Assembly: GCA_973895155.1 (NCBI GenBank)
Contig: OZ316891.1
Coordinates: 24,799,899 to 24,863,898, forward strand
Source: Marsupella aquatica
Taxonomy: Eukaryota; Plantae; Marchantiophyta
Direction: 5' to 3'
DNA: 64,000 nt
Shown one piece after another: positions 11,151-41,636 of the stretch. Each line of letters opens with the position of its first letter. The first letter of the stretch is position 1. The notes under the pieces are model-generated. The model was not told where the DNA came from. It searched no databases and saw nothing but the letters and a program-made list of their open reading frames with translations. Made by a program: the position numbers and the translations under genes.

Positions 11151-11692
11151 GGAACTTCGCAGGAATGGAACTTCGTCGGAATGGAACTTCCCAACCGGAT
11201 GTCTGCGATCCTCGCCGAAATTGCACTTACCAAGGAAAGTAAGAAACTGGATCTGAGAGACCCTCGCCGAAATGGAACTTAGGATCATAATTTTGACCGT
11301 TGCCGAGTGAGAGAACCACCAGATCTTGGAGACCCTCTCCGAGATCTACTTACACCCTAAACTCTTTGTCATCAAACTAACAAAGAAGTCGCTGGCGTCT
11401 AATCTCAGAGATCCTCGCCGAAATGGGATTACGTAGTAACTGTGGAATCATACGCTCATATAGTGCCAAAAACTAATCCTGACAGTCTTGACCGTTGCAG
11501 GTCAAATCAACATTAACTCATTTGTTGGCCAAACCTGGAGTGTGTGTGAAAAGACATGTACCCGTTATTACGAGCGGACGTTGTTGTCCCTTCAACCGTC
11601 TAGGGATAGGATACCAATAATTGCTGGATTTTTAGTGGCAATGATGATGATTGTCTTGTACGTTGCAGGTCACCACAACACGGACTAGATAG

Positions 11693-18871: not shown

Positions 18872-19669
18872 AGGAGGCGGCCCTGACACTTAGCTTAGTG
18901 GGATTGCGGTTCCACTGGTAAGAGCAACACTTGTACTCCTGCCTCGCTGTACATAGGTAGATTCAGTTAGGTAGATTAGGCTTACGCTGCAAGGAATTAG
19001 GCGGATCCACTACCAGGATAAATACCTGGGCTGCGGGGAGCTTAGGGCCTCTTCTTTAGCAAGTTTTTAGTTTGCACCAGCCGGGCTGGGATCAAGTAGT
19101 AAGAGAAGCTCTCGGTTAGTCATATAGTGACCTTGTGTATATTCATGTTTCCTCATGCCTAAGAGCTGAATAGAGTTGGCCTCACGGCTTAGTTCACAGA
19201 GCTTGTGTATGAGATGTACTGTTTGTATGGCAAGTGCATGGTATGACTCAATCAGAAGGAGTCATTTTACTATTTGTGTGTCGCATTAACTTGTGTGAAG
19301 AGTGCCCACATCAACTAATAGATGAAGGAAAGTAAGCAAGGGAGTGAGAGTTGGATGTGTCGAGCTGAGAGAGGTCTTAGCGGCTTAACCAAGCCTATTG
19401 GGGATCATTCCAGCGGCGGAATCCAAATATACCTAACCAGAAGGAGAGGAAGACAAGGGAAGGCCTAGATTAGGCCGGCTACATATCTCATGACCCGATG
19501 AAGGGTCTGTCCAGTATATGTGTGTAAAATGTTAATAGTAGTAGTACAAGGAAGTTAGCAGCGTCCCATGCCGCTAAGCCGCAAAAATGGCCTCCCCAAG
19601 CGCAAAACCTGTGGGAATCGGCTTGTGCTAGGGGTTTCTTGGGTTTAGGGAGCCATGGGACGCACCACA
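18872..19669 (+). mobile_element. 3' portion of the 5' LTR of the plus-strand family-A element
   Basis: Nearly identical to 30108-30920; ends GGACGCACCACA immediately before the PBS. Confidence 0.92.
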
Positions 19670-19673
19670 TTTT

Positions 19674-19690
19674 TGGCGCTAGATGGAGGG
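19674..19690 (+). other. Primer-binding site, tRNA-Asn type
   Basis: CA|TTTTTGGCGCTAGATGGAGGG matches the complement of the plant tRNA-Asn 3' end (CCCTCCTTCTAGCGCCA) with one mismatch. Confidence 0.8.
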
Positions 19691-22224
19691 AGCATTTCTT
19701 AAGCCGTGAGATATGAAGTTAGGAAAGAAGCGTAGGTAATGACTGAACCTACGCCAAGGGAGGAAAGAGTGATTCAACGAGAGAGAGCTCGTCTGCAGCA
19801 GCTCGCCGGGTGGCATGATACACAGTGACTGAGAGGGGCAGAAAGAGCTGGTAGCTCCAAAGCTGGAAGTGGCGTCAAAGAAGAGATACCAGAAGAAGAG
19901 TCGGTAGGAAGACACGAGTACCCAACCAACATGGGGGAACCAGAGGCACGGCCAGACGAGAGGCCAGGGACCAGACTGAGCCAACGGTCGCGCATACATT
20001 ACAAGGCATTTCATGGGAGAGGAGATGAGGATCCGGACGAATGGTTGGATGATTTCGAAGGAACCGCTGCAGCAAATGGAGAATCGGTCATCAAGATGCA
20101 GATTCTTCTCAGCCTGTTCAAGGGTGAGGCTAGGCCTTGGTACAGAGCATTGGATGTGGAAGATCAAGCCATCTAGGATATCTTCAAAAAACTATTTGTT
20201 AAGGAGTTTCGACCCATTGGAACCTCAGAACTAGCAGTGCTGAAGTTGGGGTGACTTAGGTTCAAGGAGAACAAATCCTTCAGGAAGTTCTTGCAACGCT
20301 TCCAGAAACTGGTAAGACGTACAAAGACCAATGCATCTAAAGGTATGCAACTTCAATGATTGGTGAATGCTTTGCCACAGAAGATGAGTTTTGCAATAAG
20401 GAAGGAGAACCCAGAGACTTTAGCCGAGGCAATTAAAGACATTCAGTTATACATTAATGCAGATATCACAAGCCGGAAGAAACAGCTTAAGTCTGAGAGT
20501 TCCTCATCGGAGGAAGGATCACCCCATAAGAAAAAGGATAAGAAAAAGAAACACTCTAAGAAGTCAAGAAGTGATAACTCAAGCTCGGATAGTGGAGGTA
20601 GCAAGAGTGAGTCATCTTCTAGTTCTGAAGAAGAAAAAACTAGGAAAAGGAAGGGCAGAAGAAGAGGGAAGACGAAAGTCAATCTGGAGGCTAAACCACC
20701 AGATAACATCGTAGCCCTTACCGAGCAGCTTAAAGCTATAATAGCAGAGGTGAAGCTGAAGAAGAAGGTAGTGCAGGAGGATAGCTCTGTATGGTGTGCC
20801 TTATGTTATAAAACCGGACACCATAAAGATGCATGTCCTAAGCTCAACACTAGTCATGTTCGGCATGTGGCTGAAGTCAGATCGAGTCAGGGAGAAGTAG
20901 AGTACTTTCTAGGAGATGCCGCTGATAGTGTTTTCGGCATCAGTGAGACTGGAGCACAAGATCTATCCAACCGACCTACATCTCTCTGGTCAGGATTAAA
21001 GAACAATCCAGGAGAGATGTATCCTCGGATTATTCAGAATCCGTCAGTACCTCCTAGGCCGAATGTGCAAAGATTTGCGGCATGCTATAATTGTGGTCAA
21101 CCTGGCCATTTTGCTAGAGAATGCCCGAATGCACGTAAACAAGGTGACGGACAGCCAGCTCAGCTATGTATGGGATGCCGACAGGAGGGTCACATGCTAG
21201 GACAATGTCCTACTTGGTTGGCAGGATTGGCCGCAAATCATAAACTTTTGCCGGTCAAGGTCTTGCCGCCAGGTACTACCCCAGGAGGAGTTCAAATCAA
21301 CCACATCGAGCTCGGATGGCAAGTGGATGCCGAGGCAGAGTTTGGACCATCTGATGATGAGACCGAGGCCCTATCAACATTTTCAGAAGAGGATGTGGAT
21401 CATGATTGCTACCGGATCTCTACTCGATCAACTAGAAGGAAGGAAAGGTGGGATGGGTTGGCCAAAAATAAGGGGAAGGTTCAGGAAGAAAAGATCGACT
21501 CTTTGTCAACATCAACGGAAGGAGAAGGAAGGGAACCGTCAACACAGGTAAGCCATGAACCCACCAGTGAGCCCAATCCTTCATAGGACAGTGACTTCAA
21601 TCGAGATCACCCAAAGTTGTTCTACCCATCTATCACGGCTAGTGTTAAGGAACAACTGCGAGAGTTAGAAAACCTGGAGAATACCAAAGCCATAGCCAAG
21701 GATATAAAACGAGCAAAAGCATTGTTTGCTTTGGAAGATCCAACGGCTGTGGGGACTAGCGTGAAAAAACAGGCCGAATCCAAGATGGAGACACCACTAG
21801 AGAAGCCGATAGTTCCCTATGACCTGGCTAAAGATGTACTAGAATCTAGAGTCTCGGCAACAGTATGTCAACTATTGAAAAATAGCCCGTACTTCCAGAA
21901 GCAGTTAAGAAAGGCAATCCTCGGCAAGCCAAGATTACCCAAGGTAGCGACCAGATCCGACGTACTAATGATAGAAGAAGATCAAGGAGCCCCAGCATTA
22001 CCATTAATAATTCAAGGAGAATTATTACTACGGGTACCCATCGATGGAGGATCAGGGGTATGTATTATGATTGATTCAACAGCAAAAGGGTGGGGTCGAA
22101 CACCAGAGATGACTGGAAGAGTGTTGAACATGGCCAATGGATATCAAGTCATTCCCATAGGAGTGTTAACCGGCATCAAGACAGAGATAGGAGGTATCTT
22201 CTTTAGCATTAACTATGTAGTAAT

Positions 22225-22509
22225 CAATAGTTTCACTAATTTTGGAGTATTATTAACGATTTGGAAATTTCATAACAACTTTTTGGAAATTTAAATCAAC
22301 TAAATTGTAGATAAATATGAGACTTATCAATATCATATTTGAAATTTTTTGATCAAGATATATGAAGCTTAACAAGCTACTCCTAATAAATCTATGCATA
22401 ACATACAATGTACTCTAGAACTCAAGTTATAGGGAAAAGAATAATTGTTGTTGGAAATTTCATGATCAAAAATTGGACAAAAGAATGTCCAGAGTTCGTG
22501 AAATCACTA
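22225..22509. mobile_element. hAT-type MITE (285 bp) inserted in the protease region
   Basis: Absent from the paralogous copy near 13590. Imperfect 22-bp TIRs (CAATAGTTTCACTAATTTTGGA / TAGTGATTTCACGAACTCTGGA) and an 8-bp TSD GTAGTAAT/ATAGTAAT. Confidence 0.8.
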
Positions 22510-22925
22510 ATAGTAATGAAGCCGGTAAATCCTACGTCATTCCGGCTATTGATTGGTAGGCCATGGCTATACCTAGCCAAGGTAATAGAGGATTGGGGTA
22601 AGAAGGAGTTCACTTTTGGGACCCCCTCTATCACGGTATCCTGGGATACCAAGGATGACCGCAGAAGAAGCATCAGGGAGGTAGACGGGTACGACAGTGG
22701 ACTGGAATCAGCCGATGAGGTACGATGGTTAGAATGCCTCGCTGACCAAACCGAAGAAAGTGTCTTTGGACCAGAGGTATCCCCCAGCGGACTATGGCAA
22801 GAACCTATGGAGAGTGACTTGGATGATTGTGAAGATGAAACCGAGGACTGCTTTGCCATAGAGTCCACCTTTTTAGCTTCAATCCCGGAGGAAGCACAAG
22901 AAGTAAGCCAGTTGGATGAAATGGC

Positions 22926-22940
22926 TAAGTGGGGAGCTAT
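22926..22940 (+). other. Internal (central) copy of the polypurine tract
   Basis: TAAGTGGGGAGCTAT is 15/15 identical to 26173-26187. Confidence 0.6.
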
Positions 22941-25900
22941 ACCCGAGATGGTGGATTTTTCTATGGCGTTGTGGCAGAGCCGGCAGGATCCACAACGCCA
23001 TCTATCATCGGCAAGGAGTTAAAAACCAAGGGATCGGCATACAAGCCGATTACGAGGGCAGAACAAATCGAGGCCCTATTAGAGGCCGGGAGAGCACAGC
23101 GGCCTGACCCTCAGTAGGAAGAGGCGGATGAGATGCATAGACACAATCCAGAGCCAAGGCAGGAAGGGAAGCCGACCACCAATTCAAAACCGGATAGACC
23201 GGCAAGGGGACAATCTGTGGACACCAAGGAAGAGACCGACTCGGCTAGTACAGCCGATATTCCAGTTTATGGAGGTATGAGACTGGAAAGGCCGGAAGCC
23301 GAGCTGGACCCGAATTTGAAGAAGCAGATTAATATGATCCAAGCACGACAATACCGGAAGCTCGACTTAGGAGAAGGAAGAGAATTGAACTTAGGGAGAG
23401 ACCTAGCACTTGAGCTTGAAAAAGAGATCAGTGACTTACTGATTGAATTCCAAGATGTGTTTGCATGGAGTCATCAAGATCTGAAAGGAGTAGACCCAAA
23501 ACTGGGAGAACACCGAATTGATCTCATGTTAGGAGCCAAATCATTTCGACAACCGATTTGAAGGATGAACCCTAAGTATTCCCTGATGGTCAAAACAGAA
23601 ATCGACAAACTAGTGGAAGTCGGATTCATCACTCCAGTCCTGCATTCAGACTGGGTGTCTCCAATTGTGATAGTTCCCAAGAAAGCTGGACCCGATGGTA
23701 AACCCAAGATCCGGGTTTGTCAAGATTACAGGAAGCTGAATGAAGCAACGTTAAAAGACCATTTTCCTTTACCCTTTACTGATATGGTACTAGACATGGT
23801 AGCCAGTCATGAACTATATTCATTCATGGATGGATACTCTGGTTATAACCAAATCAGGATTAGGCAGGAGGACCAAATCAAGATGGCCTTCATCACGGAA
23901 TGGGGGATCTATGTCTTCAATCGTATGCCGTTTGGACTCTGTAACGCACCAGCTATGTTTCAACAATTGATGGTGAACATTTTCCATGATTACTTAAGAA
24001 AGTTCATGGAAATCTTCATTGATGACTTTGCAGTATTCGGGAAGGCATCGAAACATGCTAAATATCTAAGGAAAACCTTCATGAGATGCAGAGAGGTAGG
24101 TCTCAAGTTACACCCCGATAAATGTTTCTTTGGAGTAATAGAAGGTGTGCTACTAGGTCACAAGGTATCAAAGAAGGGCATTGAGATTGACAAAGGTAAG
24201 CTAGCAGTATGGCTTGACATCATGCAACCTAAGAACATAAAGGATGTAAGATCCTTCTTAGGCTGCATTGGGTATTATTGCCGGTTTATTAAAGATTTTG
24301 CCAAGCTAGCTTTACCATTAACCAACATGCTCAAGGCAGGCGCAGACTTTGAACCCACACCAGAAAGAGTAACAGCTGTGGTGAAATTAAAGCAAAAGTT
24401 AGTGGAAGCCCCAGTCATGATAGCACCGGACTGGAACAAGGAATTTCATGTCTTTGTAGATGTCTCAGGTTTCTGTATCGGCTCAGTACTAAGTAAATTG
24501 GATGAGAAAGGGAGGGACCATCCCATATACTTTGCAAGCTGTCAACTTGCCGATGCCGAACGGAACTACTCCACCACAGAAAGAGAAGCATTAGGAGTCA
24601 TTTATTCATGTAAAAAGTTTAGGCATTATTTGCTAGGGTACAAGGTAATCTTTCATACCGATCATGAAAGTTTGAAATACCTAGTAAATAAGCCGGACCT
24701 TACAGGCAGGGTAGCAAGATGGATTTTGCTATTATAGGAGTTTGACTACAAGCTAAGGATCAAGCCGGGGAAGCTATACGCCAATGCCAACTTCTTTTCA
24801 AGGATCACAGGTGAACCAGCCACGGATTGCATCGATGATCAAATTCCCGACGAGGAGCTATTTGTTGTGGAAATAGCTGATACATGGTACCCAGAGATTT
24901 TGCACTTTCTCAGTACGTCCAGATTACAGCCAGGGCTAACCCGAGAACAAGCCGAAGTCTTTCTGCGGAAGGTCAGACAGTATCAGTACATTAAGGGTGT
25001 GCTACACAGGTATGGAATCAGCGGCACTATGCAAAGGTGTTTGGAAAAGAAAGAGATAAAACGAGTCTTACGGGCTATGCATGGAGAAGAGGCCGGAGGA
25101 CATATTGCTCCAGTAACCACGTCTAAAAAGATGTTAAATGCCGGTTACTGGTGGCCCACCTTGCACAAGGATGTCTATCAGTTCATCAAACAATGTGATC
25201 CTTGTCAGCGAGCAGGAGGACCAAGGTCGTCTACAAGACATCCACTGCACCCTATTCTACCTCTAGCACCATTTGAGAAATGGGGTATTGATTATATCGG
25301 ACCGCTAAAACCATTAACCCATCCTCGGAGAAACAAGTACATAATCCTGGCCACGGATTATGCAACTAAGTGGGTGGAGGCCAGGCCGACAACGAAGGAT
25401 GATGCAATTACTGCAGCTCGATTTCTGTATGAGCATATCTTCACCAGGTATGGAGCACCCCTAGAATTAGTTAGTGATAGAGGAACCCATTTTCTGAATG
25501 ATATAATTAGTCATTTAAATGAGCAGTATTTAGTTAGACATAGGCCTACTACTCCTTACCACCCAAAGGCAAATGGATTGATAGAACGAGCCAATGGGAT
25601 TATAGGAAAGATATTGAACAAGACAGTAGCTTAGAACAAACTTGATTGGGATGATAAATTGTTTGCTGCTGTTTTTGCTTACAATTTAGCCTATAAATCC
25701 ACTACCGGTCATACACCTTTTTTCTTAACCTTTGGACAAGAAGCTCTGGTACCCATGCAACTTGAGATACCAACATTTCAAGTTTCCATTGAGGAAAGAG
25801 TCTCAGAGGAGGAAAGCCTGAAAGACCGAGAATATAGATTAGAAGCTTTAGAGGAGGCAAGAATGATTTCAGCCGAGAGAATAGAATATAGACTGAATAT

Positions 25901-26172
25901 CATGAAGCAGCAGTATGATAAAAAGTTGAAAGTAGTTAGTATTCACACAGGGGATCTTGTATTACTTTATGACAGTAGGTATAGTAAGTTTCCAGGGAAG
26001 CTTTACACGAGTCGCTGGCTAGGACCTTTCAGGGTATCAAAAAAGTTCCCCAATGGCTCTGTGCAATTGGCCAACATTACCGGAGAGGTGTACCCAGTTT
26101 GTATTCACTACGACCGCCTCAAGAAATACTATATGGACGAAGATGAAGTTGTTCATGAGGACGCTTCACAAT

Positions 26173-26186
26173 TAAGTGGGGAGCTA
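26173..26186 (+). other. 3' polypurine tract of the family-A element
   Basis: TAAGTGGGGAGCTA lies directly before the LTR start TGTGATG (26187), within the last integrase codons. Confidence 0.85.
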
Positions 26187-29100
26187 TGTGATGCCTAGCC
26201 AGGAATCACTTGGCTAGTTTAAGTGGAAAAGGGAAGGGTACCCTAGAAACACCTTAGTATAGTTACAGAAATAAGGAAAATATAAACAATTAAGGGTGAC
26301 TATGGAACCCGAGCCGAGGCCGGAAGTAAGGACGCCAGGGGAGAGAACACGATTAGGGTTAGGGCATGATAAGTGCCGGCGGCTAGGGGTCACCAACGGG
26401 ATAGAAACGCCAAGGAGGAGAGGGGTAAGGGCAGCTCGCGAGGAGTTGTGGCTCATTTGCAGGCACAAACTGGGCAGACGACTACGGGCGGCCAACTACT
26501 GTCAGCTGCTTAAGCAAGCACTCAAGGGGGGAGCAGATACCGACTATCAACTTGATAAGGGTATGAGCAACATCAATCAAGCAGCACATTTTTGGGGATG
26601 CCTGTTCGAACGGGCAACTGAGTACATTGGGACTTACGAGGACGAAGAATCGGAGAGAGCAGCTCGAGAACGGCAGGAGCTAGCTTAGTTGTGGGAGCCG
26701 CAGAAAGCTACCTTCTTAGGAGGAGAACTCATCAAGGCCGAATTCTTGTGGACTCCTACTACCAATCAACTCGACGACCTTCTGTTTTGCGAAGACAGAG
26801 TTGTCGGCATCCGCGAGGCCATCAAACGCTGCAACGACATACACTGGGAGTTGAAGGGTAGCACGGAGGGGTGGACAAAGGCAACCGTGCTCGGAGAGAC
26901 ATCCACGGCAGCCGAGATGAAGAGGAAGGGAATTAACAACGACGAGGCCACCCCGACAAAAAGAACAAGGTCGGTGGCACCAAAGAGGCCAACCGAACAG
27001 CAGAGCAGGAGGCAGAGAGAAGCCGAGGAGGAGGAGGTCGACCCCATCAACACCATTCCAACGAGAGATGACACCTGGAAAGGCTAGGCGGCGATCCTCC
27101 CCAAGGAGGTCCAATTACACTTTGCAAGAGAGGAGGATGCATGCTTTACGGCTATGCAGACTCGGAAATATCAGGGCTTCATGGCTGGATCCGGCTTGGA
27201 AGCCTTTGTAAGGTTACCGTGGCTGAAGCTGGAGGTGCCGAATTCAGACTTACTTGAATTCGTGGGATCATGGGAGTCCGAGACCAATTCCACAAGGGTG
27301 TATGGGAAGGAATTCTATCTCACTCCCTAGGTGATTGCCGAAGTGTTTGGCTTGCCGATGGGCAATAAGACCAAGGTAGATACCAAGAAGACCTTGCCAG
27401 ACACGGAGTTCAGGTCGTTCCCAGGGCCTTCAACAAAGAATGGCTTCTTCCGTAACACTTGCACCAACCCGCATATAGGAGAGATGATCGATTTCTTGCG
27501 GGTGACCATGCATTGCAACTGGCCAAGAGCAGAGATTGGCAAGGCACAGGTCTATCTGGCAGAGAGGCCAGACCCAAACCGGGACTACAACGGCTACCTC
27601 CTCACTCAACTAAAGAAGATCTTGAAGGAGGAACAGCTGGTGATCGGCAAGGGAAGCGTGTCCCGGCTTGGCTATCACATGCCGCTATTGTGCCGGTATG
27701 CCCAAAGTAAGACCTTTGCCCCGGTACTTCCCCTACAGGCAAGGGCATCAGAGGAGGTTCCAGAACAGAGGCCGGCAACGGAGAAACCCAACCCGCCCAA
27801 CAGTCCTACAATCGAGCAGGTGTTTAGGCCAAGGACGGAGGACTTGCCGATGCAGCAACCAGGCATGCAGAATCTGCTGAAACTGCTGGAGAAAGAAAAG
27901 AGATCGGCATCGGCAACGACAACGGCATCGGCAACAACAACGGCAACGGCAACAATGCAGGACACTACTCCAGAGGTAGGCCTAAACCGGCTTACAAGGG
28001 AAAACCCCTTTACTGGAGTCAAGGAGAGAAGGAGGCCGGAACACGAGCCGGGAGTCCAGATGTATGTAGGAGCCTCTAGTCCCAAAGCCAAGGAGAAGCA
28101 GGCCGTAACTCCCGGCCACGACAAGGAGAACAGGAGATCAACACGGAAGCCGGAGGAGGAACCAAGACCGGCAGGAGGTGAAGCCGTGTTCACGCCAAAA
28201 CCAGGAGAGGAGCGGGAGAAGCCGGTAGTCCAAGCCGAGGAGGAGGCGGTGGAGGACTACAACAATGATAACTCCGGCTATGGGTCGGATCATCATGTTC
28301 CAGGTTTAAGGACATGTGGCCCCGGTTCATCCCCACGCTCCCAAGAGTAGTCCGAGGGGACCCGAGCCAGCAGAGCAGCCCCGAGTCTCCCCCGCCAGAT
28401 GTCACTCCCCCGAGCTTTGACAGCATAAAACAGACAGCGCAGGAATTTCAGGAGCGAATCAGGGAGGAAGAGGAGGCAGCCCTGGCTAGAGAGAAGGATT
28501 TACCAGGAGGAGAATGGCCAGAGAACATTAGGCGGCTTGCAGAAAAACGAGGCAGCCCGCCAGCCACAATAGAAGAGATCCGCAAGGCGGCTTGGGAACA
28601 AAGGCCGCGATGGATGATGCCGATGACTTCTACTTCCTCCACCTATGCTAAAGATAGAGCCATGGAGTACGGGGAGATGTGTGGGGAATTGGCGCTCAGC
28701 ATCTTTGGGGAGGAGTTGGAGCAGGGACCCTTTTTCCAGAGGGAGATGTTGGAGAAGCGCCAATTAGAAGAAGCAGTGGCCTTGGAAAGAAGCAAGAAGG
28801 ACGAGGTCATCCGTCGGCTTAGGGAAAGGGAAGCCAAAATCAAGGACCTGAGGGCGGCCAAGAAAGCCCAAGATGAGCTGCGGATTAAGCGGCATGAGCT
28901 AAATATCATGCAGGGCCAGTTGGATACCACACAATCTGATAATCGGATGATCGAGAATCTACTGATGCAGACCCAAGGAGAGTTGGCCGATGCAATCAAA
29001 GAGAGGGAGAAGTGGAAGCGAGAGCTGAGGAATGCAGAGGAGGCCCACATAACAGCCAACAACCGGGCCATGGCGGAGACCCAAAGAAAGGAATGGGCGT

Positions 29101-30920
29101 TGAAGGGGGAGCTCAAGAAAATTTGCGGAGCCCTTGAGCAGAAGGAGGCCGAGTTAGGGAAATCCTATCAAGGGATTATTGCGCTGCAGCAGGAGCTTGC
29201 GTCCCTGACGGCCAGCTTCAAGGCCGACCTAAGGGAGAAGGACGATATGCTCGATCAGACTTACGCCAAGATGAACTAGATGGAGTCTGTCATCATTGCA
29301 GAGCTCGACAAGGAGCTAAGAGCAACCCGGGAGGAGAGGGCTACCTTGAAGAAAGAACTGGAGGAAGCCCACAAGGAACGGGAGGAAGCCCAGAAAGAAC
29401 TGGAGGAGGTGCGCAAGGACCTGGACGAGGTGCAGGAGGAGTTGGAGGAAAGCACGCGGAGGCTGGAGAACTTACAACGACGAGCCGACAACCAAACGGA
29501 GCGACTGAAAAAACAAACCGTAGTATTTAAGTGCTTGTCTTCATCAGGCCCAACTCCAATTGGGGCAACCAAGTTACCAGGAGTGGTACTGGCCGAAGAA
29601 CAAGACGCGCCACCTGCACCAGTGCCGGAAGTAAGTGGGAAGGGGAAGGGACCAGCTGCCGAACCAGAAAAGAAGAAGAAGCGGAAACCTTCAGGGTCAA
29701 GGAGTAATACGACTCCACAGGCCGTGGTGACCAAGGAGGTAGACCCAGCACCAACCCCAGACAGGGTCACGGCAAAGGATCCAACTACCCTAGAAGGAGG
29801 GGAGGCCGAAGCCATGGCTGAGGCCGAAGCCGTTGCTGATGCCGAGGCCGGTGCCGAGGCCAAAGCCGAAGGTGGACCCAGTCAGGCCGATGGAGAGTTG
29901 ACTAAGTCCGGGGTAGGTAATCTGTCAGAGAACGAACCTACGACAGTGGCTGAGGAGGAAGCGTTGGGGGCGTCCACTGAGGAACAGACACCGCTGCCAT
30001 GACGGTGGTGGAGGGCCGCTCCTTTCAAGGAGGGCGGACGTGGAGGGAGGAGGCATGAGTGGGCAAGGCGGGCTCGGATCTCTAAGTTTAGGATTAGGAT
30101 CAGGACGAGGAGGCGGCCCTGACACTTAGCTTAGTGGGATTGCGGTTCCACTGGTAAGAGCAACACTTGTACTCCTGCCTTGCTGTACATAGGTAGATTC
30201 AGTTAGGTAGATTCAGTTAGGTAGATTAGGCTTACGCTGCAAGGAATTAGGCGGATCCACTACCAGGATAAATACCTGGGCTACGGGGAGCTCAGGGCCT
30301 CTTCTTTAGCAAGTTTTTAGTTTGCACCAGCCGGGCTGGGATCAAGTAGTAAGAGAAGCTCTCGGTTAGTCATACAGTGACCTTGTGTATATTCATGTTT
30401 CCTCATGCCTAAGAGCTGAATAGAGTTGGCCTCACGGCTTAGTTCGTAGAGCTTGTGTATGAGATGTACTATTTGTATGGCAAGTGCATGGTATGACTCA
30501 GTCAGAAGGAGTCATTTTACTATTTGTGTGTTGCATTAACTTGTGTGAAGAGTGCCCACATCAACTAATAGATGAAGGAAAGTAAGCAAGGGAGTGAGAG
30601 TTGGATGTGTCGAGCTGAGAGAGGTCTTAGCGGCTTAACCAAGCCTATTGGGGATCATTCTGGCGGCGGAATCCAAATATACCTAACCAGAAGGAGAGGA
30701 AGACAAGGGAAGGCCTAGATTAGGCCGGCTACATATCTCATGACCCGATGAAGGATCTGTCCAGTATATGTGTGTAAAATGTTAATAGTAGTAGTACAAG
30801 GAAGTTAGCAGCGTCCCATGCCGCTAAGCCGCAAAAACGGCCTCCCCAAGCGCGAAACCTGCGGGAATCGGCTTGTGCTGGGGGGTTTCTTGGGTTTAGG
30901 GAGCCATGGGACGCACCACA
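26187..30920 (+). mobile_element. 3' LTR of the family-A element (4734 bp) containing a long ORF
   Basis: Runs TGTGATGC...GCACCACA, is preceded by the PPT, and its 3' end matches the LTR end adjoining the PBS at 19669. Confidence 0.92.
26296..30002 (+). pseudogene. LTR-encoded ~1200-aa accessory protein, disrupted copy
   Basis: Collinear ORFs 26296-26688, 26689-27087, 27331-28350, 28314-29279 and 29280-30002 match the 1116-aa ORF; disrupted by TAG stops and one frameshift. Confidence 0.85.
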
Positions 30921-31241
30921 AGAATCAAGGAAGGGGAATTCAATCTAAAGCAGTACGACCCAAGAGAAATTTGCAGATCCGACCCTCAAACACGATAGCA
31001 ATCTGATAAAGCACGTGCAACAAGGCAAGGGATTCAATCACCCCTACATGCATTCTTAATCGCAATCAAATTACAAATTACTTCATATTTGTAACACTTC
31101 CCGACGGAAATTGCAAGGATACGTCCTACCATCCACAAACAAAATTTTATCCAATGAATTCCATGGAGAAATTGCATTTCCAGGCACTGTCAATAGATGG
31201 ACTTAATTATCTATCTTGGTCATTGCACGTTGAAGCACACC

Positions 31242-34200
31242 TGTGGTGCGTCCCATGGCTCCCTAAACCCAAGAAACCCCCCAGCTCAAGCCGATTCCCG
31301 CAGGTTTCGTGCTTGGCGAGGCCGTTTCCGCGGCTTAGCGGCATGGGACGCTGCTAACCTTCTACTACTACTATTAACATTTTACACACATATACTGGAC
31401 AGATCCTTCATCGGGTCATGAGATACGTAGCCGGCCTAATATAGGCCTTCCCTTGTCTTCCCCTGTCTTCCCCTCCGTCTTGTTAGGTATGTTTGGATTC
31501 CGCCGCCGGAATGATCCCCAATAGGCTTGGTTAAGCCGCTAAGACCTCTCTCAGCTCGACACATCCAACTATCACTCCCCTGCTTACTTTCCTTCCTTCT
31601 GTTGATGTGGGCACTCTTCACACAAGTTAATGCGACACACAAATAGCAAAATGACTCATTCTAACTGAGTCATACCATGCACTTGCCATACAAACAGTAC
31701 ATCTCATACACAAGTTCTGCGAACTAAGCCGTGAGGCCAACTCTATTCAGCTCTTAGGCATGAGGAAACATGAATATACACAAGGGTCACTGTATGACTA
31801 ACCGAGAGCTTCTCGTACTACTTGATCCCAGCCCGGCTGGTGCAAACTAAAAACTTGCTAAAGAAGAGGCCCTGAGCTCCCCGCTGCCCAGGTACTTATC
31901 CTGGTAGTGGATCCGCCATTCTTTGCATCGTAAGCCTAATCTACCTGACAGTAATCTACTTGCCCGAATCTACCTATGTACAGCAAGGCAGGAGCACAAG
32001 TGTTGCTCCTACCAGTGGAACCCCAATCCCACTAAGCTAAGTGTCAGGGCCGCTCCTGGTTCTGATCCTAATCCTAAACGTGGAGATCCGCGCCCGCCCT
32101 GCCCACTCACGCCTCCTCCCTCCACGTCCGCCCTCCCTAAAAGGAACGGCGCCCTTGCACCGTCACGACACCGGTGGTGGATCCTCAATGGACGCCCCCA
32201 ACACTTCCTCCTCAGCCACTGCCGTTGGCCTGCCTACTGACAGATTACCTGCCCTTGACCGAGTCAACTCTCCATCGGCCTGACTGGGTCCACCTTCGGC
32301 TTCAGCCTCGACAACTCCCACGGCTTCGGCTTCAGCCACCCCCACGGCTTCGGCCTCAGCCAACCCCACGGCTTCGGCTTCCCCTTCCCCTAGGGTAGTT
32401 GGATCCTTAGCCGTGACCCTGTCTGGGGTCGGTGCTGGGTCTACCTCCTTGATCACCACGGCCTATGAAGTCGTATTACTCCTTGACCCTGAAGGTTTCC
32501 GCTTCTTCTTCGTTGGTGGCTCGGCAGCTGGTCCCTTCCCCTTCCCACTTACTTCCGGCACTGGTGCAGTTGACGCGGCTTGTCCTTCGGCAATTACCAC
32601 CCCTGGTAACTGGTTTGTCCCAACGGGAGATGGACCTGCTGCAACTAAGCATTTAAATACTGCGGCTTGTTTCTTCAGCCGCTCTGTTTGGTTGTCGGCC
32701 CGCCGCTGTAGGTTCTCCATCTTCCTCATGATTTCCTCCAACTCCTCTTGGGTTTCATCCAGGTCCTTACGTGCCCCCTCCAGCTCGTTTTTGGCCTCTT
32801 CCTGCTCCCTGTGGGCTTCCTCCAATTCCTTCTTCAAGGTAGCCCTCTCCTCCTGGGTTGCTCTTAGCTCCTTGTCGAGCTCTGCAATGATGACAGACTC
32901 CATCTGGTTCATCTTGGCGTAAGTCTGTTCGAGCATCTCGTCCTTCTCCCTTAGGTCGGCCTTGAAGCTGGCCGTCAGGGACGCAAGCTCCTGCTGCAGC
33001 GCCATAATCCCTTGATAGGATTTCCCTAACTCGACCTCCTTCTGCTCAAGGGCTCCGCGGATTTTCTCGAGCTCCCCTTTCAACGCCCATTCCTTTCTTT
33101 GGGTCTCCGCCATGGCCCGGCTGTTGGCTGTTATGTGGGCCTCCTCTGTATTCTTCAGCTCTTGCTTCCACTTCTCCCTCTCTTTGATCGTGTCGGCCAA
33201 CTCTTCCTGCGTCTGAGTCAGTTTATCCTTGATATTCTGATTATCAGCCTGCGCGGCGTCCAACTGCCCCTGCATGATGTTCAGCTCATGTCGTTTAATC
33301 CGCAGTTCATCTTGGGCTTTCTTGGCCGCCCTTAGATTTTCAATCTCGGCTTCCATCCTCCTAAGCCGCCGAATGACCTCGTCCTTCTTGCTTCTCTCTA
33401 AAGCCACCGCTTCTTCTAATTGGTGCTTCTCCAACTGCTCCCTGTGAAAAAAGGGTCCTACCTCCAACTCCTCTCCAAAGATGCCGAGCGCAAGTTCCCC
33501 ACACATCTCACCATACTCCATGGCTCTATTCTTAGCGTAGGTGGAGTAAGTAGAAGTGATCGGCATCGCCCATCGTGGCCTCTGCTCCCACGCCGTCCTG
33601 CGGATCTCTTCAATCGTGGCTAGAGGTTTGCTTCCTTTTTCGGCTAGCCGCCTGATGTCCTCCGGCCAATCTCCTCCTGGTAAATCCTTTTCCTTAGCCA
33701 GGGCGGCCTCTTCCTCCTGCTTGATTCGCTCCTGAAATTCCTGCACCGTCTGTTTTATGCCGTCGAAGCTCGGGGGAGCGACATCTGGTGGGGGAGACTC
33801 AGGGCTACTCTGCTGGTTGGGGTCCCCTCGCACTACCCTTGGAAGTGTGGGGACAAACCGGCCACAGGTCCTTACTCCTGGAACGTGATGGTCCGACCCA
33901 TAGCCGGAATTATCATGGCTGCAGTCCTCCACTGCCTCCTCTACCTCTTGGACGTCCGGCTTCTCCCTCTCCTCTTCCTCGGTAGGAGCTTCAGGCAATT
34001 CTGCCTCAGATTCGGAGCTTGAGGTTCCCACGTACATTCGAACACCTGGCTTGGATTCCGGCCTGATTCTCTTCTTGTCTCCAGCAAAGGGGTTTTCTCT
34101 TGTGAGCCGGTGTAGGCCTACCTCTGTAGTAGTGTCCTGCATTGTTGCCGTTGCCGTTGTTGTTGCCGATGCCGATTTCTTTTCTTTCTCCAGTAGTTTC

Positions 34201-35889
34201 AGCAGACTCTGCATGCCTGGTTGCTGCATCGGCAAGTCTTCCTTCCTGGGCCTAAACACCTGCTCGATCGTAGGACTAACAGGTGGTTGAGGCTTCTCAG
34301 CCAACGGCCTCGGCGTTGGAGCTTCCTCGGGTGCCCTTACCTGTAGGGGAAGTACCGGGGCAAAAGTCTGACCTCTGGCATACCGGCACAACAGCGGCAT
34401 GTGATAGCCAAGCCGCGACACGCTCCCCATGCCGATTACCTGCTGCTCCTCCTTTAAGATCTTCTTCAATTGGTTGAGGAGGTACCCGTTGTAGTCCCGG
34501 CTTGGGTCTGGCCTTTCTGCCAGATAGACCTGTGCCTTGCCGATCTCTGCCCTCGGTAAGTTACAATGCATGGTCACCCGCAAGAAGTCGATCATCTCTC
34601 CTATGTGCGGGTTGGTGCAGGTGTTCCGGAAGAAGCCATTCTTCGTTGATGGCCCGGGGAACGACCGGAACTCCTTGTCAGGCAAGGTCTTCCTGGTATC
34701 AACTTTGGTCTTATTGCCCATCGGCAAGCCAAACACTTCGGCAATCACCTTGGGAGTAAGATAGAAATCCTTCCCATATATCCTCGTGCAATTGGTCTCG
34801 GGTTCCCATGACCCCACGAATTCTAATAGGTCTGACTCCGGTACCTCCGGCTTCAGCCATGGTAATCTTACAAAGGCCTCCAAGCCGGATCCGGCCATGA
34901 AGCCTTGGTACTTCTTGGTCTGCATGGCCGTAAAGCATGCATCCTCCTCCCGTGCAAAATGTAGTTGCACCTCCACCGGTAGGGTTGCCGCCCAGCCCTT
35001 CCAGGTGTCATCCCTGGTTGGAATGGCCTTGATGGGATCGACCTCCTCCTCTTTGGCTTCTCCCTGCCTCCTGCTCTGCTGCTCGGCTGGCTTCTTTGGT
35101 GCCGCCGACCTCGTTCTTTTTGCCGGGGTGGCTTCATCGTTGACGGCCCCCTTCCTCTTCATCTCTGCTGCCGTGGAGGTTTCTCCTAGCACCGTTGCCC
35201 GGGTCCACCTTTCTGTGCTACCCTTTAATTCCCAGTGTATGTCGTTGCAGTTCTTGATGGCCTCTCGGATGCCGACGACGCTGTCTTTGCAAAACAGAAG
35301 ATCATCGAGTTGATTGGAAGTAGGCGTCCACAGGAACTCGTCCTTGATGAGTTCGCCTCCTAAGAAAGCCGTCTTCTGCAGCTCCCACAATCGAGCGAGC
35401 TCCTGCCGTTCTCGAGCTGCCCTTTCTGACTCCTCGTCCTCGTAAGTCTTGATGTACTCAGTTGCCTGTTCGAACAGGCATCCCCAGAAATGTGCCGCTT
35501 GATTGACGTTGCTCATACCCTCCTTAGGTCGATCGTCGGTATCTACTCTCTCCCCGAGTGCTTGCCTAAGCAGCTGACAATAGTTGGCCTCCCGTAGTCG
35601 TCTGCCTAGTTCGTGCTCGCAAATGAGCCACCATCTCCTGCAAGCGCTCCTTACCCCTCTCCTCTGCCGGTCCTTCTTCCCGTTGATCCTTCCTAGCCGC
35701 CGACGCTTAACGCGCCCTAACCCTAATCGGGTTTTCACCCTCAGCCTTACCTCCGGCCTCTGCCCGGGTTCCATGGTTGCCCCTAATTGTTTATATTTTC
35801 CTTGTTTTGTCACTATACTAAGGTGTTCCTAGGGTGCCTTCCTGCTTTACCCACTTAACCGGCCGAGTGATTCCTGTCTAGGCATCACA
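31242..35889 (-). mobile_element. Family-A solo LTR (4648 bp) with 5-bp TSD ACACC, inserted in copia gag
   Basis: ACACC at 31237-31241 and 35890-35894, TG...CA termini, and the copia gag reading frame resumes across the insertion. Confidence 0.95.
32163..35813 (-). CDS. LTR-encoded accessory protein; 1116-aa open frame plus ~100 aa after a single TAG
   Basis: ORF 32463-35813 continues in frame as 32163-32459; the paralog has CAG at that stop. It has a basic N-terminus, a GLEAFVRLPW...EFVGSW...VIAEVFGLPMG core, a ~300-aa coiled coil, and KGKGPA/KKKRK motifs. Confidence 0.85.
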
Positions 35890-38324
35890 ACACCTCGCGT
35901 CCAAAGATTTACAAGATACGATATTGACAGATGCAGGCCCCACCCTCCAACAAAAAGCTAGAGCCCTGATTCTTATAAGACATCATCTTGCCGAGCCACT
36001 TAAGACTCAGTACTTAAATCACTATAATCCCCCGTATCCTATGGGAAGAACTACAACTAAGATTCGATCATATGCACACCATCTCCCTCCCAACAGCCCG
36101 CCATGACTACATTAATTTGCGAGTACAGGATCACACCACAATTGCAATTATAATAGTGAATTGTTTAGAATCACTTCACAACTGGCAGTTTGCGGCAGCC
36201 CAGTAGATGATGTTGAACAAATTGAAAAGACTTTATCTACGTTTCATGTTACCAACCTGGTACTGGCAGCCCAGTATTGTAACATGAACTTTACCAGATA
36301 TTCACAACTAATCTCACATATGTTACTCGCGGAGAAGCACCAAATGTTATTGATGCAGAATGCAAAGATGAGGCCACTAGGAACCGCACCACTACCAACC
36401 AAACCGGAGACCCACCTATTTGAGCCAGCAAATAGACAAAGGGGACGCGGTCGTGGGAGCTTCAAGGGGAGCAGAGGCCGACCATTTGGACGAGGTCGCT
36501 ACGAAGGCCGTGGTAGAGGCCAACCTGAATTTAATGAAGCAGCACAAGACCCTAGAAATAGAAATGGTTTTCGAGGACGAAGCTCTGGCCAAGGATCACA
36601 ACACCAAAGACGAGATAAGTTTACTCCACTCTTCTGTTTTTGCTGTGGCACAAAAGGACACATCCAAAAGACATGCAGAGCAGCAGCACATCTAGTCAAG
36701 CTCTATAAAGAAAGCTTAAACAAGCAAACACCAGAGGCACAAGGGAATTATATGGAAATACCAGTCAAAGAGTATAAATGCATATATCACAGACACAGAT
36801 ATGCCCGAAGCTCACACAACCCACTACGAATCTGAGATTACATGCAACTCAGATCCCTCTGAACTGCATTGTCGATAGTGGAACTTCCCATTCGATCCTT
36901 AGGTCAAGGCAATTCTTCAAAGATATTTCCCAGTCAAATAGAGAAATTACAACGATAACAGGTCAGAATGAAATCGAGGAAGGAAATGGCCCAGCCACTG
37001 TCAGATTCCCAGGAGGGACAGTCATTCATATCCGCTCCGCCATTTATGCACCCAAGGCCACACAAAACTTGGTCAGTTTCAAAGACATCACAGCCAACCA
37101 ACTTCAGATACATACAAACAGAACCGAACAAGGGGAAGTCCTTCAGATACTAGAAAATACAAACATGGGAATGCAAATTAGGGAGATCTTACCGATTTCC
37201 CCCCTAGGCTTATATATTACAAAAATACAAGCATTCCACACTGAAAAATCAGTTCCCACATTAATAGAAACATGGCATAAATGACTCGGGCACCCCGGTA
37301 CTATGATGTATCATCATATAATCTGGGATACCATAGGAATACCTAGGGGAGTACACCCTTCCACTTTGAAACAACCATGCCTGGCTTGCGCTCAAGGCAA
37401 ACTAATAATCAGACCTGCAGTATCAAAAACTACACATGTAATACCAAGGTTCCTTGAAAGAATCCACGCCGATGTATGCGGACCCATAGACCCACCTTTA
37501 GGCCATTCAGGTTTTTCCTTGCCATTATTGATGCCTCATCAAAATGGTCTCAGGTTTCTTTGCTATCAACAAGAAACTTAGTTTTTCCTCGAATACTATC
37601 ACATATTTTGAAGCTGAAATCACAGTTTCCTGATAACCCAATTAAAACATTAAGGGTAGACAATGCAGGGGAATTCACCTCGAAGACTTTTGATGATTTC
37701 TGTGAGACAGCCGGCATAGACACCGAGTACCCCGTTCCCCATGTTCATTTCCAGAATGGGATAGCAGAGTCATTAATCAAAAGACTACAGCTAATTGCTA
37801 GGCCCCTGCTAATGCAAACTCAACTGCCAACTATAGCCTGGGGCCATGCGATCCTACATGCTGCGTCATTGCTAAAATACCGACCATCTGCATTCAATTC
37901 ACATACCCCACATTACTTGGCATTTGGACTTCCGCCAAACATCTCACATCTTCGTACATTTGGATGTTTGGTCCTTGTTCCGATCATGGGTCCTAGACAA
38001 ACCAAAATAAGACCCCAAAGACAACGAGGGATATATATATAGGATATGACTCACCATCAATTATACATTTTCTTGAACCGACAACAACAGATGTATTTAA
38101 GGCCAGATTTATAGACTGCAATTTTTTTGAGGATGTGTTCCCTCGACTAACAAATCCAGAAAACATCAAGACTACATCAAAGACACAGATCCTACAATGG
38201 CAATCTCCAAATCCATTTCAAAATGATCCACGGACTAAACAAGCAGATGAGGAAGTAAGACAAATTATCCATCTTCACCAGATGCTCGAGAAGCTACCTG
38301 ATGCATTTAATGATGCAGCAGCTG
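35890..38324 (+). pseudogene. Copia gag (C-terminal part), protease and integrase, frameshifted
   Basis: ORFs 36161-36835 (CFCCGTKGHIQKTC knuckle), 36778-37284, 37303-37581 and 37476-38042. Confidence 0.85.
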
Positions 38325-41300
38325 TGTGATGCCTAGCCAGGAATCACTAGCCCGTTTTACATGGTAAAGCAGGAGTGTACCCTGGAAAAACCTTAGTATG
38401 GGAACAAAACAAGGAAAATATAAACAATTAAGGGTGACTACGGAACCCGGGCTGAGGCCGGAAGTAAGGACGTCGGGGGAGAGAACACGATTAGGGTTAG
38501 GGCGCGCTAAGTGTCGGCGGCTAGGGGTGACCAACAGGGGAAGACCAGAGGAGGAGAGGGGTAAGGACTGCTCGCGAGGAATAGTGGCTCATTTGCAAGA
38601 ACGAACTGGGCAGACGACTACGGGAGGACAAATGCTGTCAACTGCTTAGGCAAGCACTCGGGGTGGGAACAGATACCAACGATCGACTCAAGGAGGGTAT
38701 GAGCAACGTCAATCAAGCGACACATTTTTGGGGATGCCTATTCGAACGGGCAGGTGAGTACGTCGGGACTTACGAGGACGAAGAATCAGAGAGAGCAGCT
38801 CAAGAACGGCAGGAACTTGCTCGGCTCTGGGAACTGCAGAAGAAGGCTTTCTTAGGAGGAGAACTTATCAAGGCCGAGTTCTTGTGGACTCCTACTGCCA
38901 ATCAGCTTGATGACCTTCTGTTGTGCAAAAACAGAATTGTCGGCATCCGGAAAGCCATCAATCGTTGCAACGACCTACACTGGGAGTTGAAGGGTAACAC
39001 GGAGGGGTGGACAAAGGCAACCTTGCTAGGAGAAACATCCACGGCAGCTGAGATGAAGAGGAAAGGAAAAAACAACAAAGAGGCCACCCCGGCAAAAAGA
39101 ACAAGGTCGGCGGTACCTAGGAAGCCAGAAGAGCAGCAGAGCAGGACAAGGGGAGACGCTGAAGAGGAAGAGGTCAATCCCATCAAGGCCATTCCAACAA
39201 ATGATGACACCTGGAAAGGCTGGGCGGCGACCCTACCGGAGGAGGTGCAATTACACTTTGCACGGGAGGAGGATGCATGCTTTACGGCCATGCAGACCAA
39301 GAAGTACCAAGGCTTCATGGCCGGGTCCGGCTTGGAAGCCTTCGTAAGATTACCATGGCTGAAGCCGGAGGTGCCGGACTCAGACTTATTAGAATTTGTG
39401 GGATCATGGGAACCCGAGACCAATTCCACGAGGGTGTATGGGAAGGATTTCTATCTCACTCCCTGGGTGATTGCTGAGGTGTTTGGCTTGCCGATGGGTA
39501 ATAAGACCAAGGTTGATACCAGGAAGACCTTACCTGACAAGGAGTTCCGGTCGTTCCCAGGACCATCAACAAAGAATGGCTTCTTCTGGAACACCTGCAC
39601 CAACCAGCACATTGGAGAGATGATCAATTTCTTGCGGGTGACCATGCACTATAACTTGCCGAGGGCAGAGATCAGCAAGGCTCAAGTCTACCTGGCAGAA
39701 AGGCCAGACCCAAGCCGGGATTACAACGGGTACCTCCTCAACCAACTGAAGAAGATCTTGAAGGAGGAACAACAGGTGATCGGCGTGGGAAGCGTGTCCC
39801 GGCTTGGCTATCACATGCCACTGTTGTGCCGGTATGCCAGAAGTCAAATCTTTGCCCCAGTACTTCCCCTATCGGCAAGGGCACCGGAGGAAGAGGAAGA
39901 GCAAGGGCCGGCACTAGAGAAGCCCAACCAACCCGACAGTCCAACAATCGAGCAGGTGTTTCGGACAAAGAAAAAAGACTTGCCGATGCAGCAACCAGGC
40001 ATGCAAAATCTGCTGAAATTGCTGGAGAAGGAAAAGAGAACGGTTCCGGCAACGACAATGGTTCTGGCAATGGCACCGATATAGGACACTGCCCCAGAGG
40101 TCGGCCTAAGCCGACTCAAAAGGGAAGACCCCTTTACCGGAACCAAGGAGACCAGGAGGCCAGAACACAAGCCGGGAGTGCAAATGTATGTGGGAGCCTC
40201 AAGCCCCAAATCAGAGGCAGAGCAACCTAAGGCTCCTTCCCACGGAGAGCAGAGGGAGACGACAGCCTGGAAACCAAAGGAACCAGAGGCCATTTTTATG
40301 ACTGGACCAGGGGACCAAAGGGAGAAGCCAGGAGTCCAAGTAGTGGAGGAGGCGGTGGAGGACTACAGCAATGATAACTCCGGCTATGGGTCGGATCATC
40401 ATGTTCCAGGAGTAAGGACCTGTGGCCGATTTATCCCCACGCTTCCAAGAGTAGTTCGAGGGGACCCCACCCAAAAGAGTAGCCCCGAGTCTCCCCCACC
40501 AGAGATTGCTCCCCCGAGCTTTGACGGCATAAAGCAGACGGCACAAGAATTTCAGAAGCAACTTATGGAGGAAGAGAAAGCAGCCCTGGCTAGGGAAAAG
40601 GAGTTACCAGGGGTAGTATTGGCCGTAGGACAAGCCAAAACACTCACCCCGGTGCCAAAGGTAAGTGGCAAGGGGAAGGAACCGGCTGTCGAAATAGGGA
40701 AGAAGAAGAAGCAAAAACCTTCTAGGTCTGGGAGTTATACGGCTTCTCAAGCCATTGTAACCGAGAAGATAAAGCCGGCACCAATCTCCGGCATCGGCAC
40801 GGCGGTGGATCCACCAGTCCTAGGAAGTGGAGATGGCAAGGCCAAGGCCGGGAGAACCAATAATGATGCCGAGGTACCGGATCCTCCACTAGAACATGTT
40901 GGGGAGGCCGTAGCCGTATTGGAGGCCATGACCGAGGCTGAGGCCGAAGCCGAGGGTGGACCCAGTCAGGTCAATGAAGAGTTGACCCGGTCAAGGGCAG
41001 GTAATCTGTCAGAGGATGGACCAACAACAGTGGCTGTGGAGGATGCGTTGGGGGCGTCCAGTGAGGACCAGTCACCGGTGTCGTGACGGTGTAAGGGCGC
41101 CGTCCCTTTTAGGGAAGGCGGACGTGGAGGTAGGAGGCGTGAGTGGGCAGGGCGGGCGCTGATCTCCAAGTTTAGGCTTAGGATCAAGACCAGGAGATGG
41201 CCCTGACACTTAGATTAGTGGGATTTTGGATCCACGGGTGAGGGCGACACTTGTGCTCCTGCCTTGCTGTACATAGGTAGATTACAGTCAAGTAGATTAT

Positions 41301-41636
41301 AGTCAAGTAGATTACAGTAGGTAGATTAGGTTTACGCTGCAAGGAATCAGGTGGATCCGCGACCAGGATAAGTACCTGGGCGGTGGGGAGTTCAGGGTCT
41401 CTTCTTTAGCAAGTTTTTAGTTGCACCAGCAAGGCTGGGATCAAGTAGTAAGAGAAGCTCTTGGTTAGTTATACAGTGACCCTTGTGTATATTCATGTTT
41501 CCTCATACCTAAGAACTGAATAGAGTTGGCCTCACGGCTTAGTTCGCAGAGCTTGTGTATGAGATGTACTGTTTGTATGGCAAGTGCATGCTATAACTCA
41601 GTCAGAATGAGTCATTTTGCTATTTGTGTGTCGCAT
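38325..41636 (+). mobile_element. Family-A LTR copy with an internal deletion and 3' truncation
   Basis: Starts TGTGATGCCTAGCC and carries ORF fragments 38398-41086. LTR homology stops at ...GTCGCAT (41636), where copia RT resumes. Confidence 0.9.

Follow-up and report, generated by a model that had tools for sequence, protein, structure and literature searches.

The window analysed here comprises 64,000 nucleotides of Marsupella aquatica DNA, and its central feature is a solo long terminal repeat (LTR) of an Athila-like Ty3/gypsy retrotransposon that carries a long accessory gene (31242..35889, minus strand; family 1). The unit is 4,648 bp long, runs from 35889 to 31242, opens with TGTGATGC and closes with GCACCACA, giving TG...CA ends, and is bordered by a perfect 5-bp target-site duplication, ACACC, at 31237..31241 on the left and 35890..35894 on the right. 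An earlier note on this DNA had claimed that the unit is an LTR standing alone within such a duplication, and both copies of the duplication were located. The insertion target was the gag-like frame of a decayed Copia-type element, whose RVT_2 domain lies farther right, at 41.5-42.8 kb, and whose gag we take to be Bianca-like.

The assignment of this unit as an LTR rests on the other copies in the window. Besides the solo LTR there are five pieces of the unit, at 80-92% identity. The start base is common to four copies (18871 minus, 26187 plus, 35889 minus and 38325 plus), and the end base is likewise common to four (19669 plus, 30920 plus, 31242 minus and 56270 minus). The copy at 26187..30920 on the plus strand (4,734 bp, 85-88% identity to the solo LTR) lies directly 3′ of a G-rich polypurine tract that, with a conserved motif upstream, overlaps the end of pol (26151..26186, plus strand), which identifies it as the 3′ LTR of a gag-pol element. 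At the other side, the LTR end at 19669 is followed by TTTT-TGGCGCTAGA, a primer site beginning at 19674 that we take to be of the tRNA-Asn type. Between the two lies a decayed internal region (19670..26186, plus strand) encoding gag with a CCHC knuckle, reverse transcriptase, RNase H and integrase. Because the tract precedes the 26187 copy, the primer site follows the 19669 end and gag to integrase stand between, the unit is an LTR and 31242..35889 is a solo LTR, as had been claimed; the TG...CA ends agree. Self-comparison listed no direct repeat longer than 150 bp within the 4,648-bp unit, which is therefore one LTR and not a short-LTR element. Against this assignment stands the fact that the window holds no element with two complete LTRs.

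In the gag-pol element, Pfam domains follow the Ty3/gypsy order (zf-CCHC, RVT_1, RT_RNaseH, Integrase_H2C2, rve), and the best named integrase matches are from Calypogeia fissa, at 63-66%. The Tat clade (TatI-III, Ogre, Retand) is defined by an additional archaeal-type RNase H (PMC6317226). Here RNase H and the integrase zinc finger are only about 100 residues apart, and a second RNase H gave no match in any pol frame scanned, so that the defining Tat feature is missing. We class the element provisionally as Athila-like, with Phygy/Selgy as the alternative placement.

The 5′ LTR of the same element is retained as its last 798 bp (18872..19669, plus strand), having been shortened by another LTR copy inserted into it. 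Comparison of the element's LTRs over these 798 bp gives 16 transitions and 0 transversions, and 14 of the 16 differences fall in CG or CHG context, which argues that the element was methylated; we read it as a young insertion in methylated DNA. The copy inserted into this 5′ LTR (18132..18871, minus strand) consists of the first 740 bp, the LTR head plus codons up to 226 without a stop, and lies upstream of a gag-pol piece at 15017-13311. It is likely the 5′ LTR of a minus-strand element and would fit a gene-bearing 5′ LTR, although a deletion separates the LTR head from gag-pol. Self-comparison also delimited an internally deleted copy within the Copia-type element (38325..41636, plus strand) and a deleted copy that keeps the core domain of the gene and the LTR end (56270..57522, minus strand). 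Every family-1 LTR copy in the window is located inside another transposon.

The reading frame within the solo LTR is open for 1,121 codons from stop to stop (35828-32463). It ends at a TAG at codon 1122 (32465-32463) that is private to the solo copy, and beyond this codon the frame reopens to a TGA at codon 1222, which is common to all three copies covering that position. The gene probably extends from M105 to the shared TGA (32163..35516, minus strand; 1,117 codons), interrupted in the solo copy by the private TAG. In the 3′ LTR, the gene contains four stops after M105 and a frameshift, and all gene copies in the window are broken. The ratio of nonsynonymous to synonymous substitution rates (dN/dS) between the solo LTR and the 3′ LTR was 0.23 (95% bootstrap 0.19-0.29) over 1,094 codons, with five stop codons removed, and ranged from 0.14 to 0.42 across all nine pairs with sufficient overlap. 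By region, it was 0.09-0.21 in the core domain (six pairs), 0.24-0.30 in the linker and 0.23 in the C-terminal part (one pair). Four control frames gave 0.87-1.45, so the dN/dS comparison that had been proposed earlier, 0.23 overall versus about 1 in control frames, indicates purifying selection. Two values weigh against this: the last 100 codons reach 0.61-0.90, a weak constraint, and the mirror antisense frame gives 0.29-0.35, yet that frame contains 20-35 stops versus 3-7 in the gene frame. We hold with high confidence that a gene conserved by selection lies inside the LTR, and the claim of a long gene at this position, with a single stop in the solo copy, stands.

The start of the gene differs from the one first suggested. 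Codons 19-103 lack a third-position excess in all six pairs, contain frame-breaking indels in two of the three other copies, and have lost the first ATG in one of four copies, whereas codons 104-226 show a clear third-position excess in every one of the six pairs. We therefore rejected the first ATG (35774) as the start, since codons 19-103 are not conserved as protein. Because conservation at the protein level begins only after codon 103, the likely start is M105 at 35516, 373 bp from the LTR edge and not the 75-115 bp given in the earlier note. The remaining LTR head (35517..35889, 373 bp, minus strand), which is not conserved as protein, has a TATA-like TATAAA (35795-35790) and a pair of donor-like GTAAG sites, each of which recurs in all four copies, and for this reason it is read as the likely promoter and 5′ untranslated region of the gene.

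In the solo copy, the sole stop falls past the core domain, the coiled coil and a nuclear localisation signal (NLS)-like motif, leaving 1,017 residues open, and the gene has in this sense survived in a solo LTR as had been claimed. The gene may nevertheless matter only in full-length active elements, with solo copies being methylated passengers that make no protein, and we give this explanation an even chance. That every copy in the window is broken, that the CpG observed/expected ratio is 0.65-0.69 and that selection between copies mostly reflects replicating ancestors all fit silent solo copies, and this particular solo copy may well be silent. The 1,017 open residues speak against it, and it bears on the claim about solo LTRs and not on the gene itself.

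The encoded protein consists, in order, of an N-terminal part, a core domain of about 210 residues (34368..35021, minus strand), a proline/acid-rich linker, a long predicted coiled coil (32636..33401, minus strand; roughly residues 810-1065 of the window protein, P0001, with limits set by eye) and a basic NLS-like motif, PPTKKKRK (32496..32519, minus strand), of putative function. The coiled-coil region has a weak Pfam match to the ATG16 coiled coil. It is this coiled coil, together with a 3′ sense position like that of the Athila env-like open reading frames (ORFs) described in PMC7264820, that would suit an env-like membrane protein or a particle scaffold. No hydrophobic helix or transmembrane segment was found in the protein, in which the highest 19-residue hydropathy is 0.95, several basic NLS-like motifs are present, and the predicted fold matches a DNA-binding protein, and we regard a membrane or scaffold role as very unlikely.

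Word-index homologue searches with the gene returned no match. A profile built from four core domains in the window found 108 relatives at E 0.001 or better, and of 20 that were looked up, nine had an organism name: Calypogeia fissa (seven), Selaginella (one) and Riccia sorocarpa (one). With Calypogeia also giving the best named integrase matches, a liverwort host is probable. The plant mobile domain (PMD; PF10536) had no match in P0001, the four window domains or 55 relatives at E 0.01, and the DUF1985 and DUF287 domains of VANC proteins had no Pfam match in the window protein or its relatives. Transposase_32 (PF20167, cut-off 45 bits) matched 6 of 83 aligned relatives below its cut-off (best 34 bits, E 3.5e-8) and did not match the window protein, which suggests that Transposase_32 is remote kin of the core domain and that the window protein is not a member.

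In addition to these sequence searches, the structure prediction that had been proposed earlier was run on the core domain. The model is of high predicted quality (predicted local distance difference test 91, predicted template modelling score 0.88), and in a fold comparison with 48,161 solved chains its top match is the VANC21-DNA complex 9LNK (Z 8.2, 195 of 218 residues, root-mean-square deviation 4.0), followed by a match at Z 2.4. A distant relative, P0091, gives a model that matches VANC21 at Z 9.9 (201 residues aligned, root-mean-square deviation 3.6; next match 2.1), and its Foldseek rank 1 is 9LNJ (probability 0.98, TM 0.54, E 0.085). Several observations weigh against a true relationship. 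Neither the window protein nor its relatives scored above the cut-off of any Pfam family, sequence identity between the core model and VANC21 is 8%, and Z 8.2 is close to the usual best score of unrelated models, 7-8. Foldseek searches against the PDB and viral models at E 0.001 gave no match for the window's own model, and the P0091 model, built on an alignment largely common with that of the window model, is not independent of it. Sequence searches against solved structures gave nothing relevant. We consider the fold relationship to VANC21 likely to be real, because of the gap to rank 2, the coverage of the full domain and the published structural homology of VANC and MAIN (PMD) (PMC13547354). 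We regard the protein as a remote relative of PMD/Transposase_32-type accessory proteins, which are internal in other plant elements.

The position of the gene in related elements was compared by an integrase scan of metagenome contigs, from which the best 80 of 423 matches were used (loci L001 onward). The core domain lies downstream of the integrase on the same strand in 17 of these 80 loci; many of the others, as seen among the first 22, have little DNA downstream of the integrase. The window contains a single occurrence of a purine-tract motif, ahead of the gene and outside the 4,648-bp unit, and 7 of the 80 loci have one each. As in the window, the motif precedes the gene in L003, L004, L007 and L019, while it follows the gene in L002, L005 and L006, where a second purine tract lies between pol and the gene. 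In the relatives with an internal gene, a leader of 300-800 bp separates this first purine tract from the gene. These layouts suggest that the gene sits inside the LTR in about four related loci and is internal in others. The tract of L003 is followed by 9 bases that form an exact inverted repeat of the LTR end beside the primer site, and this independently supports an LTR-borne gene there. Counting against the comparison, the tract motif was defined after the sequences had been inspected, and the contigs of the four LTR-type loci end before the far end of the 3′ LTR. The primer sites of L002 and L003 are presumably of Athila type.

A looser tract pattern, which gave many false candidates, had placed the gene inside the LTR in L001, L002, L005 and L006. 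The second tract behind the gene overturned this for the latter three, and L001 is too short to call. In L037 and L067, LTR pairs of about 540 bp enclose an internal core domain. An integrase tree of 39 rows, including 38 loci hand-picked from the 80, places the window, L001, L002 and the four LTR-type loci in one unresolved fork (96/99), so that one or two moves of the gene into the LTR are both possible, a point against our preferred explanation.

By integrase path, L002 is the relative nearest to the window; its gene is internal and its LTR measures roughly 1 kb. This would suit a boundary error in which only the final 800-900 bp form the true LTR and the gene stands outside it, after the manner of L002, and so would the 798 bp retained at the 5′ LTR ending at 19669. 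That limit, however, is the insertion point of another copy and has no TG at its start. The 4,648-bp unit moreover has its perfect duplication, no tract motif lies inside it, and two further copies share its start base while lying in unrelated DNA. We consider a boundary error highly improbable, slightly more so than an env-like or scaffold role, and retain the gene inside the LTR.

Where the gene lies within the LTR bears on how it is expressed. The non-coding tail (31242..32162, 921 bp, minus strand) contains a tandem array, a TGTA/TTGTGT-rich stretch resembling a poly(A) signal, and the LTR end. We think it somewhat probable that the gene is placed in U3 (the unique 3′ region of the LTR) rather than in R (the terminally repeated region) or U5 (the unique 5′ region). 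In the alternative, the element would have no promoter other than the TATA-like site in the LTR head; the gene would then belong to a very long R (or U5) and be the leading cistron of the genomic RNA, and gag-pol would be expressed by splicing from the GTAAG sites or by read-through. The conservation of the TATA-like site and both donor-like sites in all four heads fits this, as do the poly(A)-like stretch after the gene, the TATA-like sites before the gene in L003 and L007, and the tail, in which no conserved strong TATA was seen. It requires, however, an R or U5 of 4 kb and suppression of the 5′ poly(A) site; the 300-800-bp leader of the internal-gene relatives fits a gene-specific promoter, and the tail, at 921 bp, is close in size to the LTR of L002, about 1 kb. 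On this balance an R or U5 placement seems doubtful, and U3 remains our preferred location.

The related loci also bear on whether the protein acts as a chromatin tether for integration, steering the pre-integration complex as chromodomains do in chromoviruses. In L025:1-4713, RNase H, integrase and the accessory gene share a single frame of 1,570 codons, in which the domain and coiled coil come behind the integrase; this could be either a true fusion or a chance open linker. A tether would also suit the nesting of all window copies within other transposons and the integrase tail of the gag-pol element, which had no chromodomain match. The L025 linker, however, looks like non-coding DNA that happens to be open, with a separate ATG farther on, and the gene is separate from pol in the window, L001-L007 and L019. 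A paralogue at 57.5-60.7 kb lies in an element without LTR marks, and nesting is common in repeat-rich DNA. A tether is in our judgement improbable, though less so than a scaffold.

Our analysis leads us, somewhat better than evenly, to favour a solo LTR with a conserved accessory gene whose protein is likely a sequence-specific DNA-binding protein of predicted VANC/PMD fold that would shield the family's own copies from silencing. For the role in itself, DNA-binding and promoting expression by self-protecting anti-silencing or by transactivation, the odds are about even. Ancestrally, the gene would have had the position seen in L002, L005 and L006, behind pol and ahead of the 3′ LTR, with a similar purine tract on either side. 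In the simplest history, plus-strand priming would later have moved from the downstream tract to the one upstream, so that the gene and its leader or promoter became part of U3, and reverse transcription would then have copied the gene into both LTRs. The LTR head would drive a transcript ending at the LTR's own poly(A) region, which would make a solo LTR a complete transcription unit. The protein would go to the nucleus, oligomerise through its coiled coil, bind short motifs in the non-coding DNA of the family, and counter DNA methylation or Polycomb silencing in trans.

This scheme has parallels in characterised proteins. VANC21 binds to short motifs within the non-coding DNA of the element that encodes it and causes loss of methylation (PMC5735166), and MAIN/MAIL proteins oppose Polycomb at DNA motifs (bioRxiv 2024.09.27.615353). 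MAIN and MAIL1 also act in silencing (PMC5418596), and a shared fold therefore shows no function, which counts against an anti-silencing role. So does the motif content of the LTRs, since no family-specific motif is evident at the density that VANC requires, and the top k-mers of the solo tail are at chance level. Enrichment in ten non-coding stretches at three word lengths (30 tests) was mostly chance; of the family-1 tails, that of the 38325 copy alone reached p about 0.005 (uncorrected over the 30 tests). A 14-15-nt tandem unit around GTAGATT (31937..31975, minus strand), with a copy number of about 2 to 4 that varies among LTR copies and significance in one of three tails, is a weak candidate binding site. 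The LTR heads of three related loci (L003:6150-6660, L004:2390-3157 and L007:2627-3125) are rich in short CCGGA/ACGGAAC repeats (p 0.005-0.025, uncorrected), which are candidate family-specific motifs. Among the functions that the earlier note had listed, anti-silencing is the one to which the predicted VANC21 fold match lends direct support, while a particle scaffold, like an envelope role, has none, no hydrophobic helix having been found.

The combination of features seen here resembles several known systems and is identical to none of them. A non-chromovirus accessory ORF in which a globular PMD-type domain precedes a coiled coil is known from Tat/Ogre Ty3/gypsy elements (PMC4408406, PMC6317226). 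Those ORFs are internal (5′ sense or 3′ antisense) and belong to elements with a second RNase H, whereas the present gene is inside the LTR, in sense orientation, in an element without a second RNase H, and has no PF10536 match. According to PMC4408406, such ORFs occur in Tat lineages, were first seen in gymnosperm elements, and were not found in moss Tat-like elements. The 3′ sense extra ORFs of Athila elements (PMC7264820) are likewise sense ORFs behind pol, and L002, L005 and L006 have exactly this layout; the Transposase_32 family (PF20167) is comparable through its weak matches in 6 of 83 relatives. In contrast, the protein here has no transmembrane segment and stays below the Pfam cut-off, and its gene is downstream of the functional purine tract, so that it is duplicated with the LTR. 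VANC21 of the VANDAL21 Mutator-like DNA transposons (9LNK/9LNJ) is also a transposon-encoded accessory protein with the fold predicted here, and a coiled coil is predicted for VANC (PMC13547354) as for our protein. The two differ in sequence (8% identity) and in carrier, a non-seed-plant LTR retrotransposon versus a eudicot DNA transposon, and for the present protein no dense target motif was found and any such activity is putative.

Protein genes within an LTR are found in retroviruses, in MMTV (mouse mammary tumour virus) sag and partly in HIV (human immunodeficiency virus) nef. Like these, the gene described here lies in the LTR and is kept in solo LTRs, but sag and nef are animal-retroviral, much shorter and encode unrelated proteins. 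In plants, LTRs reach about 5 kb (PMC6317226), and published descriptions place the extra ORFs of plant LTR elements in the internal region (PMC7264820, PMC6317226, PMC11963269, PMC4408406, PMC5418596). Full-text literature searches, with subscription papers, Repbase entries and supplements, where a precedent may lie, outside their scope, found no gene inside a plant LTR, and passages of PMC6431247 and PMC12885004 contained nothing on LTR-borne genes. The LTR location, the presence in solo LTRs and the predicted VANC fold in a non-seed-plant retrotransposon thus appear undescribed in the literature searched, while the class of protein is known from internal ORFs. The suggestion of an undescribed LTR-encoded system accordingly holds for the location, for which we found no precedent, and fails for the kind of protein, which has known PMD/Transposase_32-type kin.

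LTR-LTR recombination is usually seen as the host disarming retrotransposons; here it leaves an accessory gene behind. If the protein works like VANC, a retrotransposon would possess anti-silencing of a sequence-specific kind, and the extra ORFs of Athila and Tat elements, long without explanation, would have a testable function. The origin of the fold is also concerned: PMC13547354 proposes that VANC derives from a captured MAIN-like host gene, and PMC5418596 favours domestication from a Gypsy ORF. The relatives from Calypogeia, Riccia and Selaginella, and the loci in which the domain stands beside an integrase, point to an older transposon reservoir of the fold. In the boldest form of our proposal, which we put forward tentatively and think less likely than not to hold in full, every solo LTR would be a self-contained cassette of promoter, VANC-type anti-silencing gene, poly(A) site and target motifs, able to switch the family back on in trans once the host has removed the element, and transposons of early land plants would already have used the VANC/PMD fold, ahead of the MAIN and VANC proteins of flowering plants. 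In practical terms, 4.7-kb coding LTRs risk being mis-annotated as host genes.

Further copies of the gene occur elsewhere in the window. A second family begins with the LTR-like start TGTGACAC (15019..18131, plus strand) and has lost its 3′ end; its LTR status is putative. It contains a stop-free frame of 816 codons (15425-17875) that encodes a coiled coil and, at 26% identity, the same core domain, with a TATA-like site near 15335. Its start is preceded at 15014-15018 by ACACC, the same 5-mer as the duplication of the solo LTR, probably by chance. At 1603-3701, a gene tail with a coiled coil (to 2802) precedes a non-coding stretch of about 900 bp with GTGACA at its LTR-like end, and this is possibly a third family of gene-bearing LTR. 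The core-domain paralogue at 57523-60700 (domain at 57983-58591, frames to 60382) is close to P0003 and abuts a family-1 LTR piece; TTACG-type short repeats lie at its flanks and LTR marks are lacking. It looks like a DNA-transposon-like element, which would echo VANC in VANDAL.

The remaining features are of other kinds. A primer-site-like sequence at 290-320 on the minus strand is of the same type as those of L002 and L003 and has an AT-rich, LTR-like stretch to its right. A 37-bp tandem array of about 20 copies at 90% occupies 10423-11156, with related 28-bp units near 4850-5010 and at 7707-7782. A 492-codon frame at 6178-7656, which had no Pfam match, ends in a CxC...CKH motif that we take to resemble a SWIM zinc finger, and a frame at 61791-62882 on the minus strand encodes a NIF phosphatase-like domain (E 1.7e-16).

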